Positions 2,552 to 12,340 of a DNA stretch of 45,219 nt are shown one piece after another. The stretch is from a virus (taxonomy: Duplodnaviria > Heunggongvirae > Uroviricota > Caudoviricetes), in IMG/VR virus record IMGVR_UViG_2740892444_000003, positions 1 through 45,219 of that record; one strand, written 5' to 3'. The notes below the pieces were generated by a model. That model ran no database searches. It saw nothing but the letters and a program-made list of their open reading frames with translations, and was not told the DNA's origin. A program made the translations under genes and the position numbers. Numbering within the stretch: position 1 is the stretch's first letter; each line of letters begins with the position of its first letter.

Positions 2552-2914
2552 ATGTTAAAGCTATTTGCAAAGTACACCTCGATTGGTGTGCTGAACACAC
2601 TTATACACTGGGTGGTTTTTGGTGTATGTATCTATGCCGCGCATACCAATCAGGCTCTGGCAAACTTCGCAGGTTTCGTTGTGGCTGTGAGCTTTAGCTT
2701 CTTCGCGAATGCAAAATTCACATTCAAAGCATCGACTACAACGATGCGCTACATGTTATATGTCGGGTTCATGGGAACACTGAGTGCTACTGTTGGATGG
2801 GCTGCTGATAAGTGCTCGCTTCCTCCAATTATCACTCTTATCACCTTCTCCGCCATCAGCCTGGTGTGCGGTTTCGTCTATTCAAAGTTCATTGTCTTTA
2901 GGGATGCGAAATGA
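2552..2914 (+). CDS. gtrA: GtrA bactoprenol-linked glucose flippase
   Basis: A 120-aa protein with four hydrophobic segments, typical GtrA size and sequence (YfdG-like), and a 4-nt overlap with gtrB. Confidence 0.85.
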
Positions 2915-3840
2915 AAATTTCTTTAGTCGTTCCGGTCTTTAACGAAGAGGCCACGATACCTATTTTTTATAAAGCCGTGCGCGAATTTGAAGGGCTTCAG
3001 CAGCATGAAGTCGAGATAGTCTTCATAAACGATGGCAGCAAAGACGCTACAGAATCAATTATCAACGAGCTTGCTGTTGCCGACCCGCTTGTGGTTTCGC
3101 TGTCGTTCACACGTAACTTCGGCAAAGAACCTGCCCTGTTCGCAGGTCTGGACCATGCTACCGGGGAGGCAATTATCCCGATTGACGTTGATCTGCAAGA
3201 CCCTATCGAAGTTATTCCTCACTTGATAGAGAAATGGCAGGCCGGTGCAGATATGGTTCTGGCTAAACGCTCTGACCGCTCCACTGACAGCAGGCTGAAG
3301 CGTAAATCTGCTGAGTGGTTCTATAAACTTCATAACAAAATCAGCAACCCTCAGATAGAAGAGAATGTTGGCGACTTCCGGCTCATGTCTCGCGAAGTAG
3401 TAGAAAACATTAAGCTCATGCCAGAACGAAACCTGTTTATGAAGGGGATACTATCCTGGGTAGGTGGTAAGACAGATGTGGTTGAATACGTAAGAGCCGA
3501 AAGAGCCGCAGGAAAAAGTAAGTTTAATGGCTGGAAGCTTTGGAATCTGGCGCTTGAAGGGATAACGAGTTTTTCTACCTTCCCGCTGAGAATGTGGACG
3601 TATATCGGTCTCTTCGTAGCCGGTTGCTCATTTTTTTATGGGGCATACATGATTGTGGATACCCTTTGTTTTGGCAATCCGGTGAAGGGATATACATCGA
3701 TAATGGTATCGATGCTATTCCTTGGCGGCGTTCAGCTGATAGGTATTGGAGTGCTCGGCGAATACATTGGCCGCATTTACATCGAAACAAAGAACAGACC
3801 AAGATACATTACGAAAAGGGATAATGTTGAACATGAGTGA
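2911..3840 (+). CDS. gtrB: GtrB bactoprenol glucosyltransferase (GT2)
   Basis: N-terminal [12 protein letters not shown]...INDGSKD...DVDLQDP GT2 motifs and two C-terminal TM helices; YfdH-like. Confidence 0.9.
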
Positions 3841-5317
3841 TTCAGCGTTAAAAAACGATAAATTCCAGCGAATTTTTAGAATTGTTTTGCCATTGTCCAT
3901 TTTATACATATCTTGGATTGTTTTTACTGGCAGACTTTACATTGATGACTTAGGCCGTTCTCTTTACGGTTATACATCGTGGGGACAGGACGGCAGGCCA
4001 GCCTCTGATCTATTAATGTCAGCCTTGAGTTTTGGCACGCCAATCCTAGACATTACACCCCTTCCCCAGATTTTATCTGTCATTGCCTTAAGTGCAGTTC
4101 TGTCACTTTGGGGGGTAAAGTATCTGCCAAGAAAAGGCACAACCTCTTCTGCTGTATGTGTTTTATATTTTATTCTATCACCATTTTTCCTTGAGAATAT
4201 CTCATATCGTTATGACTCACTACCTATGTCTTTGAGTCTTGTTGCACTATTATTGCCATATGCATTGAAGAAAAAACCTTGGTCTCCTTTTCTACATTTC
4301 ATTTCTGTTATCGCTTCCCTGTCTTTTTATCAGGCATCAATATCGTTATTCATATTACTTATGATTATTGATGTAATTCATCTTTATTTTTCTAAAAAAG
4401 ATGATTTAAGACATCTAGAAATAATCAAGTCAATTGCAATTAACACGCTTGCCTTTGCTGCTGGATTTGTTTTTTATAAGGTATTAATTGCTAGCTCCTT
4501 TGCGTCAGGCTCTTATTCTGATGAGCACTCAAAAATTATAAACGTTGACCACACCTTTTTTGATGTACTGTATAATAATACAGTTGTCATATTTACGTGG
4601 CTTTTAAACCCGCTTTATAAGTGCTCACCTTTTCTCTTTAAGGGGTGCGCATTGATCTTGCTAGTTAGCATCATAAAGATATCAATGACATCCAAAGATG
4701 TGAAATCCAGAGTTATTAACTTATTTTTACTTTCCGCCTTGATTACTGCGGGCTTTTTCTCTTGCTTTGCACACATTGCACTTCTTAAAACCCCTGTGCT
4801 AGCGCCTAGAGTATTAATATCTTTCACAGGATTCTTCCTGCTTTTTGCATACCTAGTAGTCCAAGCCTTTGAAAGTAAAAAAATTCAGCTGATACTTTTG
4901 GCCCCTGTTGTTTTTTTTAGTTTCATACTTTCATTTTCTTATGCAAACGCATCAAGCTCCCAAAAGGAGCTAGATAAATTAATTTCCACCTCAATTTATA
5001 ACGACATTTCTCATCAAGATTTGAGTTTTAAAAATGTTTTCATTCATGGCGTTATGCCAACATCGAAGCAGAGGGCATTGATAGTCGAGAGACTTCCGAT
5101 AATGAATTCTCTGATACCTATTTATTTAAATAACAATTGGTCTTGGGGGGCTATGATTCTTAAGCATTACCTTCTCGACTACAATGTGGACGCAACAATT
5201 ACAGATCCAAAAAAGGAAATCTGCTCCTTAACACCATTCTCCAGGTCTAAGGATTATTCACTATACAGCAAAGGTGATACCTTAATAGTATCATTTGATA
5301 AGACTGGATGCCGCTGA
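3824..5317 (+). CDS. GtrC-type serotype-specific O-antigen glucosyltransferase (polytopic membrane protein)
   Basis: It is the third gene of the gtr operon, visibly AT-rich and highly hydrophobic. The start is ATG 3824 or 3833, the latter overlapping the gtrB stop. The 3746 start in the ORF track lies inside gtrB. Confidence 0.7.
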
Positions 5318-8987: not shown

Positions 8988-9742
8988 CAGTTAGGCGCTC
9001 CTGTGTTACCGCCGCCGGTCTGTACTCCGCCGTGCGTGTGCGTCATCAGGCTCTTACCACCAGCTTTTACATCGTTAGTCACCGTGACAGGGCCAAGCAT
9101 CGTCGCGGTGCCGCCGCTTTCGCCCATCCCCTGAGAGAGATTCCCGTTTATTGTCACGTTGCCGTTTAGCGTGATGGTGGGTGATGTGATCGTGGTTCCT
9201 CCTTCTGCTGTCGCCGTCAGCGCGCCGGGGGTTTTAACCGTGATGTTATGGCCTGCGGCCACTTCCACAAACGCAGCGCCATCATCAGTACGCAGTTGCG
9301 CGGCGCTGGTGCTGATTCCGCTGATTTTCTGCGCCTGAGACTGCGGACCGACGATACAGAACGCATCCGATAAATCATGCATTCTGTCATCAACCGTCTC
9401 CTGTATCCCGCCGCTCTGCCACCAGAAATCAATACAACGATCGGCAAAAACGACAAGACACTCATCCCCAGCCTTTACCGGAAAAGTCAACGTACAGCCT
9501 CCGCCGCGTGGGAATACCACCGGCACATCCACCAGCAGCGGGTAATTTTTGGTAACGCGATTGCCGTCGTTATCCGTTTCAACCGAACGGATAGAAGGCT
9601 GCACAACCGCCGTCACAGCGTCAGGATCGAATGACTGGACGATGCCAGGCAAAGCGACTCGGATCTGGTTCTTTGTTGTTTCCCGTTCAGATTTGAATGT
9701 TTCAGCAAGGTCGCCGCTGCGGGTCTGGTCAGATACTGCCAT
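8987..9742 (-). CDS. Baseplate spike / assembly protein V (Mu gp45-like)
   Basis: A 251-aa protein with a C-terminal MTHTHGGVQTGGGNTGAP motif typical of gpV-type spikes. Confidence 0.75.
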   Translation of the reverse strand: MAVSDQTRSGDLAETFKSERETTKNQIRVALPGIVQSFDPDAVTAVVQPSIRSVETDNDGNRVTKNYPLLVDVPVVFPRGGGCTLTFPVKAGDECLVVFADRCIDFWWQSGGIQETVDDRMHDLSDAFCIVGPQSQAQKISGISTSAAQLRTDDGAAFVEVAAGHNITVKTPGALTATAEGGTTITSPTITLNGNVTINGNLSQGMGESGGTATMLGPVTVTNDVKAGGKSLMTHTHGGVQTGGGNTGAPN

Positions 9743-9760
9743 TTAGTAGGCTCCAGAAAG

Positions 9761-9786
9761 CAAAAAACCCGCCGGGTGGCGGGTTT
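9761..9786 (-). terminator. Rho-independent terminator ending the toxin cassette
   Basis: On the minus strand, AAACCCGCC-ACCC-GGCGGGTTT is followed by a T6 run. It begins at the stop codon of ORF 9785-10201. Confidence 0.7.
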
Positions 9787-10201
9787 ATGAATCGTAGGTT
9801 TTCAATTTTTCGAGTTCATCAGGAGGAAGTTCTATGAAGGTTTCCTCTGCTAATTTTATCAGCCGGGGAAGCATCGAATCAGCTTGCTGATGAGCGTTTG
9901 GGCTGATGATTGCCAATATCTGATAGTGTTCATCGATATAAAGATGCTGAGCATATACCAAAAAATTATCACATGTCCGTTCACTCAGAGATGCTTCTGG
10001 AGGCCAGGGTTTATCGCCAGGTAGCTTTAAGTGAATTTTCCTGATGTTGGCAGCCATCGCATCATAGTTACGTTCAAAACCGCCTAACGAACCAAAACAC
10101 CAGAACTGGGAACCCTTTGAAATATAATCGGCAAGCATTTGAGCATACTTATGTGCTGCAGCTAAATGACGCAATTCTCCCGTGATACTGACTTTTGCCA
10201 T
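9785..10201 (-). CDS. YafO-family-like toxin (putative ribosome-dependent mRNA interferase)
   Basis: The 138-aa segment IRKIHLKLPGDKPWPPEASLSERTCDNFLVYAQHLYIDEHYQILAIISPNAHQQADSMLPRLIKLAEETF lines up with E. coli YafO VAHIHLANENHPFPPQLRQFSRTNDEAHLVYCQGAFDEQAWLLIAILKPEPHKLARDNNQMHKIGKMAEAF. The YafO sequence is recalled from memory and not searched. Confidence 0.55.
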   Translation of the reverse strand: MAKVSITGELRHLAAAHKYAQMLADYISKGSQFWCFGSLGGFERNYDAMAANIRKIHLKLPGDKPWPPEASLSERTCDNFLVYAQHLYIDEHYQILAIISPNAHQQADSMLPRLIKLAEETFIELPPDELEKLKTYDS

Positions 10202-10202
10202 G

Positions 10203-10775
10203 TCACATCCATTTAGGGGCGTTGGCTCCCAGCATCTTATGCGATGTTGAGATCAGTTCAATAGCCTCTTCACGGGTAACATTATCTGACAAGAGTTCAG
10301 CCTGGAAAGGCTGCGATTGCCTAACTTCAGCGGCCAACTGAGTTGCAGTGTTCTCGACGGCGGTCAACGCACGAACATATTTGCGTTTTAATGGGCGCAA
10401 CATTTGCAGATGGCCTTGCCACATAGGGGACCTTTCCGCTTCAGAGAACATATCCACTAAATGTCCTTTAGCATTTCGGCATGCCTTGGCAAGACCTTCG
10501 AGATGGGATAAAAACCCTTCCGGAAGCTCATCAACAATGATTCTCCCATTTCGAAAAGCTTCGAGATGAGACATGCCTTCCTTCGCGGTATTTTCGATTT
10601 CTTGAGCGCGTGCAGCAATCGCGGTACAACGACGAAATGCCTCTTCAGCATCTAATCGTTGTGGCAGTTCACAAGCATTAGAGATCAGGGGTTTGAAAGC
10701 ACCGTTAACAGCTTCCTGAACCTGATTCATTTGTTGTGTAATTGTTGCCAGCGCAAATGCGTAGCTAATCGCCAT
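10203..10775 (-). CDS. Uncharacterised 190-aa helical protein, upstream partner of the YafO-like gene (candidate antitoxin or sensor)
   Basis: The stop lies 1 nt from the toxin ATG (TGAcATG). A GAGGG RBS sits 7 nt before ATG 10775, and the track start at 10781 is a TTG. It shows no resemblance to the ~97-aa Phd/YefM-type YafN. Confidence 0.55.
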   Translation of the reverse strand: MAISYAFALATITQQMNQVQEAVNGAFKPLISNACELPQRLDAEEAFRRCTAIAARAQEIENTAKEGMSHLEAFRNGRIIVDELPEGFLSHLEGLAKACRNAKGHLVDMFSEAERSPMWQGHLQMLRPLKRKYVRALTAVENTATQLAAEVRQSQPFQAELLSDNVTREEAIELISTSHKMLGANAPKWM

Positions 10776-10788
10776 ACCCAATCCCTCT

Positions 10789-10803
10789 GTCGTTTTAAAC
10801 GAC
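10789..10803. promoter_or_regulatory. Perfect palindrome GTCGTTT-T-AAACGAC between the putative cassette promoter and the RBS (candidate operator)
   Basis: Read directly from the sequence. An upstream minus-strand sigma70-like candidate is TTGAGT-N17-ATAATG in the AT-rich 10782-10943 gap. Confidence 0.35.
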
Positions 10804-10943
10804 TATACACCACTTATTCAAAGTTAGCTGAGCGCTAAAAGTTCGCAAAGTTTAGTGATCATGCAACCACCTAGCAAGCGATAAAAAATCATTATTTAGT
10901 GAATGTGAACAAACTCAACACTATGCAGAAATGTAACTTTTGG

Positions 10944-11276
10944 TTAACCAGAAACCTTTTTGCATGGAAAGGAACCGATGATTTTCGGCGCATCCATGCT
11001 GTTCTGCAGCAGTTGGACATTCAGGAAAGCTTTTCCGTTACGTTTCACAAACTCAAAGCCGTAATTGTTACCATCACGGGAAGGCATCAGGCCCATGTCC
11101 ATTTTTATGTTTGAATAGTCACCATCTTTTCCCAGAAATTTTATCTTCTGTGATGTGACAGTTTCACCGTTAATAACAGTCATTCCGTCACCGGTCATCG
11201 TGTAGTTGCCGCACTGAATTGCAGCCATCGCCGGAGCAGTAACCATCATAACTAACGCCAAACATAACCGTTTCAT
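10944..11276 (-). CDS. Small secreted/periplasmic protein of unknown function (moron)
   Basis: The ATG at 11276 overlaps the hub-gene stop (TAATG). There is an N-terminal signal peptide MKRLCLALVMMVTAPAMA/A and two Cys residues. The longer track ORF start lies inside the hub gene. Confidence 0.65.
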   Translation of the reverse strand: MKRLCLALVMMVTAPAMAAIQCGNYTMTGDGMTVINGETVTSQKIKFLGKDGDYSNIKMDMGLMPSRDGNNYGFEFVKRNGKAFLNVQLLQNSMDAPKIIGSFPCKKVSG

Positions 11277-12340
11277 TAAAGCCCTCTTTCCCTCGCTGAT
11301 GAGGAAACAAGATCCGCCGCGCCACGCGCTTCGCACATCATATCCATGTACCACGCCTGGCCCCTTGTATCGCCAGTGTACATAATCCCGCGCACAATAT
11401 AAACGCCATCCGTTGCGATGCTGGCAGGCTGCGATGTGGTGCCGCTTAGCGTGATATTTCCATCCGTGTTCTGGTCGGTGATCTGACCACCAGCCATCGC
11501 AATATCGTTGTTCGACAAGGCGGTACGATACACGGAAGCCTGATCCAGCTGAATAAGTCCGTTAACCCGGATGTTCGGATTAATAAGCGCGCGGACGTTT
11601 ACGCCGTTACCGATAGTCTGCTGCGGCATGCCAATAAGCCCGGTAGCGCTGTTGAGCACAATCGCTTCATGAACATATTCGTTATTCGCCACCATCTGGC
11701 GCTGACCGTCCACGAATTGCCATGTTGCGCCACATTGCCCGGCTACGTTATCCATTAGATGCCGCGTCATGCCAAAGAGTACCCGCCCCCGGGGGAATAC
11801 AGTAGCAGGCATTTCAGGCGTCAGGCCTTCGGTCGCGCCTTTGGCTTCGAAGTCTTTCATCAGCGCACGGTTTACATCAGCGACCGTGTAACCGGCAGCC
11901 AGCGTCTGTGAGGTTATACTGGTGGCAAAAGCCAGATCAGTATCTGCTGCCTGAATCAGGACGTAGGAATCAACCGGACTGTCTTTTCCTGTGACCGAGT
12001 AGCGAATTTCACCGCTGAAAATCAGTCCGTAGTTGCGGCCATCACTCTGACCCACGTCCGCCGCGTCAACTTCCCGCACGGTCCCGACGTCGCTTGCCGA
12101 CACCTCCGGCGCGATACCGTCGTAACCGGCAATCAGACGCACTTTCGAAAACTCCTGCCCGGTGATTCGGTTCACAGTATCTGCCGAGAGGTTATAAATT
12201 TTGATAGTCCCTACCCGGGACGCGCTGCTGATGTTGAACCAGTCGATCGTAAAGGTGACTTTAAAATCACTTAGCTCAATTCCCTGACCGTTCCCGTCCA
12301 CAAGCTGCAGCTCGAAATGTCTCATCCAGTTCTGTGACAT
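11276..12340 (-). CDS. Baseplate hub protein (Mu gp44 / P2 gpD position)
   Basis: A 354-aa protein, placed by synteny between the tape measure-proximal genes and the spike. Confidence 0.6.
   Translation of the reverse strand: MSQNWMRHFELQLVDGNGQGIELSDFKVTFTIDWFNISSASRVGTIKIYNLSADTVNRITGQEFSKVRLIAGYDGIAPEVSASDVGTVREVDAADVGQSDGRNYGLIFSGEIRYSVTGKDSPVDSYVLIQAADTDLAFATSITSQTLAAGYTVADVNRALMKDFEAKGATEGLTPEMPATVFPRGRVLFGMTRHLMDNVAGQCGATWQFVDGQRQMVANNEYVHEAIVLNSATGLIGMPQQTIGNGVNVRALINPNIRVNGLIQLDQASVYRTALSNNDIAMAGGQITDQNTDGNITLSGTTSQPASIATDGVYIVRGIMYTGDTRGQAWYMDMMCEARGAADLVSSSARERGL

Follow-up and report, generated by a model that had tools for sequence, protein, structure and literature searches.

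The window analysed here is a stretch of 45,219 nt from a tailed virus of the class Caudoviricetes (IMG/VR record IMGVR_UViG_2740892444_000003), and all coordinates refer to this whole stretch. Between the baseplate hub and spike genes, the window carries a cassette of two adjoining open reading frames (ORFs), the first of which encodes a partner protein of 190 amino acids (aa) and the second a 138-aa homologue of the toxin YafO. The cassette and its neighbours all lie on the minus strand and are listed in the direction of that strand:

11276-12340, minus strand: baseplate hub ORF (weak match to E217_GP41, 6e-5, under the Pfam cutoff)
10944-11276, minus strand: gene of a 110-aa secreted protein, whose ATG overlaps the hub stop codon (TAATG)
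between the 110-aa gene and the 190-aa ORF, minus strand: non-coding gap of 168 bp
10849-10877, minus strand: predicted cassette promoter (-35 TTGCTA at 10877-10872, N17, -10 TAAACT at 10854-10849)
10824-10838, minus strand: leader dyad (hairpin 1), TTAGC-N5-GCTAA, at about +3 to +20 of the predicted transcript
10789-10803, minus strand: leader hairpin 2, GTCGTTT-A-AAACGAC, which abuts the Shine-Dalgarno sequence on its 5' side
10782-10788, minus strand: Shine-Dalgarno sequence AGAGGGA of the partner gene (read directly)
10203-10775, minus strand: ORF of the 190-aa partner (phrog_35514; WP_023565513.1), the candidate antitoxin
10202-10205, minus strand: junction TGA-c-ATG from the partner stop codon to the toxin start codon, with a spacer of 1 nt (read directly)
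9785-10201, minus strand: gene of the 138-aa YafO-family toxin homologue (identical to WP_023565512.1)
9765-9786, minus strand: intrinsic terminator (9-bp stem with 6 GC pairs, T-run), which overlaps the toxin stop codon
8987-9742, minus strand: spike ORF (PF18352 N-terminal domain, 1.3e-43, and GpV Apex motif)
9787-10943, no strand assigned: variable cargo slot, from the stop codon of the 110-aa gene to the terminator before the spike gene

The G+C content of the inserted DNA (toxin gene, 0.42; partner gene, 0.48; gap, 0.37) is below that of the hub and spike genes (0.54-0.56), and the same is true of third codon positions (GC3), at 0.37 in the toxin gene and 0.42 in the partner gene versus 0.61 in the hub and 0.59 in the spike gene. 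An initial annotation of this DNA had described a baseplate operon interrupted by AT-richer DNA which contains two ORFs separated by TGAcATG. The composition bears out the first point, and both ORFs are present where it had placed them; the gap, which it had given as 160 bp, measures 168 bp, and the 110-aa gene at 10944-11276 had been overlooked as a third member of the accessory gene set.

The gene pair and its products

The pairing of the two genes was assessed in 86 complete loci, i.e. loci not cut by a contig end; the distinct pairs number 44. A YafO gene directly follows the partner gene in every one of them, with a spacer of 1 nt in 80 loci, 0 nt in five and -1 nt in one; the 1-nt spacer of the TGA-c-ATG junction implies translational coupling. 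Even the remotest relatives of the partner, P0066 (36% identity), P0073 (23%) and a 197-aa protein (E = 2e-4), are each followed by a YafO_toxin gene, as is P0074, which is counted among these relatives. Seen from the side of the toxin, Serratia YafO homologues (49-51% identity) are preceded by a 192-aa branch of the partner family. Pairwise divergence of the partner is tightly correlated with that of the toxin (r = 0.975; none of 2000 Mantel permutations gave as high a value), and the partner diverges approximately 1.3 times faster, a difference in rate that is usual for antitoxins. The two genes form an obligate pair, and the arrangement that defines type II systems (bicistronic, co-oriented, closely spaced and co-inherited genes) is found here with a linkage of 100%.

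The 138-aa protein is a member of the Pfam family YafO_toxin (PF13957; 62.6 bits versus a cutoff of 25, profile positions 12-98 of 101). This domain is present in all of its homologues, and the protein also matches phrog_1651 (3e-34). BLASTP comparison with YafO of E. coli K-12 revealed 25% identity over 125 aa (E = 5e-7), and the RefSeq/PGAP name of the protein is already "type II toxin-antitoxin system YafO family toxin". An AlphaFold2 model built with 25 homologues has a RelE/HigB-like alpha/beta fold at a predicted local distance difference test score (pLDDT) of 94.9. The aligned toxin family, K-12 YafO included, shows no variation at H57, R75, H104 and E119, which marks these as candidate catalytic residues. 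Across the Enterobacterales, the 138-aa protein is better conserved than its partner.

The partner is 190 aa long if translated from the ATG and 192 aa long if an upstream TTG is the start codon. It belongs to phrog_35514, a PHROG of unknown function, and its label in public sources is everywhere "hypothetical protein". No match was found in the Pfam, NCBIfam, PADLOC, PDB or viral-structure libraries (Pfam was searched with the single protein and with 30 family members, and PDB with phmmer and a profile; only noise, at E > 0.01, was returned), and none of the 30 family members gave a Phd/YefM match in Pfam. The AlphaFold2 model of the partner (pLDDT 78.9) consists of five helices (residues 3-30, 43-75, 88-115, 123-154 and 168-181), with no beta-strand and no helix-turn-helix (HTH), and the protein is therefore without the usual DNA-binding folds of antitoxins. 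Its structural neighbours are generic, the best of them including the secretion-chaperone-like bundles FlgN and FliT. The most conserved residues (V23, A26, F27, P29, L30, C35, P38 and L41, together with S178, H179 and W189) fall partly in the segments modelled with the lowest confidence, as would be expected of a partner-binding surface.

Two candidate relationships of the partner were rejected by profile alignment. Its profile aligned with that of YafN with an hhalign probability of 0.2%, and the same value was obtained for the DUF2335 protein which occupies the cargo slot elsewhere and which, being also of 190 aa, had been considered as a diverged form of the partner.

The family is very small. 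An exhaustive search of 1.84 billion representative proteins with a hidden Markov model of the partner found just 14, and all members from the three genome-derived loci and from the named database entries belong to the Enterobacterales. Sequenced isolates of this order carry it commonly; one Klebsiella variant is present on 603 contigs.

These results uphold what the initial annotation had said of the two products, namely (i) that the motifs of the 138-aa protein line up with those of YafO (BLASTP against the K-12 protein), (ii) that a profile and structure check should find a YafO/RelE-like fold (Pfam membership and the predicted RelE/HigB-like fold), (iii) that the partner is an all-helical 190-aa protein which cannot be placed in any family (library searches and the five-helix model), and (iv) that it differs from YafN, an antitoxin of about 97 aa and of the Phd/YefM type (the hhalign result above).

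On balance, we think it probable that the cassette is a portable, bicistronic toxin-antitoxin module of a type II-like kind, carried as a prophage moron, in which an orphan helical protein takes the place of YafN; the partner is probably a new kind of antitoxin. Several observations weigh against this interpretation. No HTH, ribbon-helix-helix (RHH), AbrB or Phd domain was recognised in the partner, either by Pfam or in the model, and the protein is larger than the toxin and without the short disordered tail of canonical type II antitoxins. The 138-aa protein reaches only 31.4 bits with the NCBIfam YafO equivalog model NF007377, for which the cutoff is 153; although it belongs to the family, this score is far too low for orthology with K-12 YafO. 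Members of the toxin family are acidic, with a median isoelectric point (pI) of about 5.8 and a range of 5.2-6.5 (family alignment A2), which is unusual among RelE-type ribosome-binding RNases; the pI of K-12 YafO is near neutral (6.97). At E <= 1, neither the two cassette proteins nor the product of the neighbouring 110-aa gene matched any model of PADLOC-DB v2. Finally, in two loci (L063 and L089, positions 4001-4573 in both) a frameshift at a poly-A (Lys-Lys-Lys) run disrupts the partner gene and leaves the toxin gene intact. These frameshifts are probably homopolymer sequencing errors; if real, they would mean that the toxin is tolerated without the partner, which would argue against an essential antitoxin.

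Some of the same features would suit a pair of another kind, in which the two proteins make up one effector and the partner is required as its co-factor, adaptor or sensor, not as a neutralising antitoxin. It might be a chaperone-like helical bundle which holds, targets or activates the YafO-fold nuclease, the nuclease being harmless because of a low intrinsic activity or an expression level set by the leader. The size of the partner relative to the toxin, its lack of an antitoxin-type domain, the presence of FlgN and FliT bundles among its generic neighbours, the acidic toxin and the two loci with a frameshifted partner and an intact toxin all agree with this explanation. We nevertheless regard it as unlikely, since the gene order, the 1-nt spacing, the co-divergence and the faster evolution of the upstream gene are the standard signature of antitoxin-toxin pairs, and frameshifts at homopolymer runs are typical of sequencing error.

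The low equivalog score, the acidic pI throughout the family and the absence of a PADLOC model could also be taken to mean that the 138-aa protein has kept the YafO fold and is no longer a toxin, the pair having a different role, e.g. in regulation or RNA binding. To this we give little credence: H57, R75, H104 and E119 are invariant through to K-12 YafO at an overall identity of 25%, and the conservation of the protein throughout the Enterobacterales is strong and exceeds that of its partner.

The leader and the terminator

The toxin-antitoxin interpretation is accompanied by a set of signals that travel with the two genes. The promoter consensus TTGnnn-N17-TA(A/C)ACT is kept in 19 distinct leaders, drawn from all contexts in which the cassette occurs, with a spacer of 17 nt in 16 of them and of 18, 18 and 16 nt in the other three. 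TTGCTA-N17-TAAACT is thus predicted to be the cassette's own promoter. The initial annotation had chosen a different site, TTGAGT/ATAATG (10918-10890), which has a score of 9/12; such sites are no commoner here than in shuffled sequence, and this one, situated outside the portable segment on its upstream side, is kept in baseplate copies only.

Two hairpins can be drawn in the leader. Dyad 1 (5 bp) is 100% paired in 16 distinct leaders, a value above every shuffled and slid control; both bases of two of its pairs have changed (GC to UA in four of the sequences), and there are three G-U cells. It may be considered a putative operator, although the G-U wobbles suit an RNA hairpin at least equally well. 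In hairpin 2 the sequence varies and the pairing stays (GTCGTT/AACGAC, GTCGA/TCGAC, GGTCCA/TGGACC), and variants such as GTCGT/GCGGC are paired through G-U wobbles. The palindrome which the initial annotation had pointed out is real, at 10789-10803, but it behaves as a leader RNA hairpin and not as an obvious DNA operator. A purine-rich GAGG/GGGG motif occupies the Shine-Dalgarno position in all aligned leaders.

In four distant cassettes (L011, L015, L019 and L086) hairpin 2 takes the form of a GC-rich stem followed by a U-run, i.e. of a canonical intrinsic terminator, which lies 15-25 nt before the partner start codon and approximately 60-80 nt after the promoter. In L011, an 11-codon ORF terminates within this hairpin. 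The structure could be an attenuator or the end of a small RNA.

If it were the latter, the leader might encode a small RNA as a functional third component of the system, for instance an RNA regulator or an RNA antitoxin. The position of the GC-rich hairpin with its U-run in these four cassettes, 60-80 nt past the promoter and before the ribosome binding site of the partner gene, would fit such an RNA, as would the compensatory and G-U changes in both hairpins. Hairpin 2, however, has no U-run in the window or in most cassettes, an Rfam scan of the cassette region gave no credible match, and no tandem repeats of the kind found in type III antitoxins were detected. A 5' leader that tunes expression accounts for the same data more simply, and we consider the small RNA very improbable.

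The terminator at 9765-9786 also follows the cassette in other contexts (L005, L006 and L013), and it is found in related prophages with other cargo; it therefore closes the cassette and at the same time forms the shared edge of the slot. The strong terminator which the initial annotation had seen at the toxin stop codon is thus confirmed, although it is not specific to the cassette. Its proposal of a moron layout agrees with the predicted promoter, the terminator, the atypical GC3 and the presence of the cassette in about 10% of related prophages. The same strong terminator lies within the late baseplate operon, directly ahead of the spike gene, and is kept whatever the cargo; expression of the spike, baseplate and fibre genes would hence seem to need antitermination or read-through.

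Genomic contexts and the cargo slot

The pair was observed in at least five unrelated contexts:

context 1: the myovirus baseplate slot (the window)
context 2: between the tail chaperone (DUF6246) and tape-measure genes, in siphovirus-type tail modules (Big_2/tail-terminator/tape-measure) of Pantoea and Serratia prophages
context 3: after the tail tube gene and a YdaY-like gene (PF27119), in another siphovirus
context 4: the lambdoid nin region, between ead/ea22 and ninE, in Klebsiella
context 5: next to hsdR/hsdM, near cysS/folD, in Serratia quinivorans

Nucleotide homology between contexts extends from about 10857-10886 down to 9741-9756, and the cassette is spread among prophages of E. coli, Klebsiella, Enterobacter, Citrobacter, Serratia and Pantoea.

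In Serratia quinivorans (L006-L008) a type I restriction-modification system, comprising a 1174-aa HsdR-like helicase/nuclease and HsdM, lies approximately 250 bp downstream of the cassette, and no phage genes were called nearby; this setting looks like a defence island. The siphovirus prophages of Serratia and Pantoea (L013, L091-L095 and L004) contain a second cargo hotspot in the gap between the DUF6246 chaperone and tape-measure genes. Small genes of unassigned role follow the cassette there (194+114 aa, 126+143 aa, 211 aa, 128+95 aa and a DUF551 protein).

The hub/spike region is present in 353 E. coli genomes, about 10% of which carry the cassette within it. Among 5426 complete E. coli genomes, the cassette was found in 37, always on the chromosome and always at least 98.5% identical. 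In relatives without the cassette, homology stops at 9786-9788 (with the terminator included) and resumes at 10941-10948. The slot is filled by other genes in related prophages:

alternative slot cargo: DUF4282 protein, 79 aa
alternative slot cargo: DUF2335 protein, 190 aa
alternative slot cargo: HMG-box protein
alternative slot cargo: overlapping pair of genes for 243 and 142 aa (L099, 830-1989, E. coli SM107), with no Pfam domain
alternative slot cargo: SEN34_21

PADLOC analysis of six alternative cargo proteins gave a single, sub-threshold match (HEPN_IX, E 0.0094), to the 142-aa protein of L099, and the 243+142-aa pair may be another two-gene toxin-like module. The 138-aa slot gene of SEN34 was considered as a YafO homologue and rejected, as it has neither similarity to the family nor a Pfam match.

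The cassette is near-identical among prophages which differ in the spike (60-98%) and in the 110-aa gene (57-72%), and this combination of a near-identical cassette and differing neighbours indicates recent exchange by recombination. Where the baseplate is more distant (hub 58-60%), the cassette has diverged in step with the spike. The presence of alternative cargo in the same slot corroborates the view, expressed in the initial annotation, that the hub/spike junction is an accessory hotspot. A survey of the occupants of this junction, also proposed there, established that the cassette is not an invariant part of the baseplate, approximately 90% of relatives being without it.

These data bear on the possibility that the pair serves lytic growth, being read through from the late baseplate operon and having no part in defence or addiction; late in infection, mRNA of the host or of a competing phage would be degraded by the nuclease, with the partner as a timer. 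The cassette does lie inside the late operon and in the same orientation, and the sole terminator-like site from the hub to the cassette, within the 110-aa gene, is weak (7-bp stem, 3 GC pairs). Moreover, four of the five contexts are inside a prophage and three of them in a tail module. On the other hand, the same cassette, promoter and leader included, is also found in an early (nin) region and beside the type I restriction-modification system on a chromosome, where no phage genes were called in the vicinity, and its absence from about 90% of closely related prophages implies that it is dispensable for lytic growth. We therefore judge a lytic role to be quite improbable and retain the toxin-antitoxin module as the preferred interpretation.

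The host element itself can be recognised from features near the start of the window:

1009-1083: tRNA-Arg(CCU)
1209-2402: tyrosine integrase
2552-5317: O-antigen glucosylation operon of the gtrA/gtrB/gtrC type

The combination of tRNA-Arg(CCU), integrase and gtrABC indicates a serotype-converting prophage of the SfV/SEN34-like kind, integrated at argW, as the initial annotation had assigned it on an argW/SfV-like basis. The part of the window from 9000 to 12300 is 100% identical to a prophage of E. coli BY63. In BY63, the gene between those for tail-fibre assembly and DUF2612 (L001, 2709-3059) is an incomplete pseudogene annotated as "hypothetical protein".

The only PLSDB record that contains the partner is NZ_CP012733.1 (partner at 11340-11909), described as a non-mobilisable Shigella flexneri "plasmid" of 41,686 bp. 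Its size is the same, 41.7 kb, as that of the cassette-bearing IMG/VR contig L031. The record is probably a circularised genome of this phage type, which, if so, would suggest that the prophage is inducible.

The product of the 110-aa gene (10944-11276, minus strand) carries a Sec-type signal peptide with cleavage at MKRLCLALVMMVTAPAMA/AIQ. It matches phrog_3443, and its homologues are labelled "STY1065/STY2022 family phage-derived protein". Its identity is 57-72% in most prophages (92% in two) in which the hub and the cassette are 95-100% identical. The gene was considered as a member of the cassette and rejected, being missing from every copy outside the baseplate.

Proposed mechanism and significance

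As we envisage the module, the 138-aa protein would cleave mRNA and arrest translation, as YafO does, and the partner would bind and neutralise it stoichiometrically, translational coupling holding the partner in excess. The likeliest contacts with the toxin would be made by partner residues 23-41 and by the C-terminal SH-MLG---P-W tail with the invariant W189. Transcription from TTGCTA-N17-TAAACT would be independent of the late operon, so that the pair would be made in the lysogen; the leader hairpins would tune expression, with hairpin 2 of the distant copies acting in an attenuator-like manner. We do not assume classical autorepression, as no DNA-binding domain can be recognised in the partner. 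If the supply of the partner were halted, or the partner displaced, as might happen when another phage infects the cell or when the element is lost, the toxin would be freed, and abortive infection or addiction would follow.

The general toxin-antitoxin reading had already been offered in the initial annotation, and it stands with respect to the YafO-family toxin, the non-YafN partner, the obligate pair and the hotspot; the promoter it had selected does not. A bolder form of the proposal is conceivable, though doubtful. In this form, the partner would be a new class of antitoxin which senses infection directly and releases the YafO-fold RNase on binding a component of the invading phage. The cassette would then be an unlisted abortive-infection system, spread via prophage tail-module and nin hotspots, and the antitoxin:toxin supply would be set by the two-hairpin leader, acting as a regulated attenuator.

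Among known systems, YafN-YafO of K-12 is the closest in plan: its toxin likewise belongs to PF13957, with the H/R/H/E residues in common, and its near-abutting ORFs are likewise in the order antitoxin-toxin. It differs in that (i) YafN is a 97-aa protein of the Phd/YefM type, whereas the partner described here is a 190-aa helical orphan, (ii) yafNO is part of the LexA-controlled dinB operon, whereas the cassette is prophage cargo with its own predicted promoter, and (iii) the toxins share 25% identity, with 31 versus 153 bits on the equivalog model. The antitoxins of HigBA, RelBE, YafQ-DinJ and other BECR-fold type II modules have HTH, RHH or Phd domains, none of which was recognised in the partner.

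Prophage morons and defence hotspots are familiar from the promoter-gene-terminator units of lambdoid phages and from P2/P4-type hotspots with defence systems. The cassette resembles them as a compositionally distinct insert with a predicted promoter, a terminator, a presence/absence pattern and alternative cargo in the same place; unlike in the P2/P4-type hotspots, the cargo of the hub/spike slot was not matched to defence systems (PADLOC gave only the sub-threshold HEPN_IX). Larger antitoxins of the sensor or hyperpromiscuous type are also known, examples being the C-terminal domain of CapRel(SJ46) and Panacea/DUF4065. The partner is like them in being an antitoxin moiety beyond the size of a DNA-binding domain plus tail, and possibly a sensor of a trigger, but no similarity of sequence or fold to them was found. 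Panacea is promiscuous, whereas the partner family is the opposite, being restricted to one YafO subfamily.

YafO was shown experimentally to be a translation-dependent mRNA interferase neutralised by the product of the upstream gene (PMC2814082), and 13 BECR-fold families of type II toxins, PF_YafO among them, have the antitoxin gene ahead of the toxin gene (PMC11980606); the ribosome dependence of YafO is disputed (PMC11980606). We found no solved structure of YafO. In a survey of E. coli toxin-antitoxin systems, approximately 8% of the partner clusters of YafO_toxin corresponded to known antitoxins (PMC10790755), and two papers mention in passing YafO toxins of prophages for which no antitoxin was recognised (PMC10449497, PMC4684702). 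Leplae et al. reported YafO paired with Phd or with unclassified sequences, not on phages (PMC3141249), and the NetFlax paper does not mention YafO (PMC10440598). No published description of the partner family was found. What was already known is the assignment of the 138-aa protein to the YafO family (RefSeq); what is new is an exclusive, non-canonical partner family and a conserved leader.

That toxins mix with new antitoxin families is an established theme, so the surprise for specialists is limited, and what we propose on toxicity, neutralisation, expression in the lysogen and any anti-phage effect is inferred from what is known of the family and from genomic context. YafO is, however, among the least understood toxins of the RelE/ParE superfamily, and the partner adds a concrete, well-delimited family to its mostly unassigned partner clusters. 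The cassette is a compact, easily cloned unit of 1.1 kb for studying how a BECR toxin may be neutralised by a non-canonical helical protein, and it also bears on whether hotspots in prophage tail operons carry defence cargo and on the role of the conserved leader.

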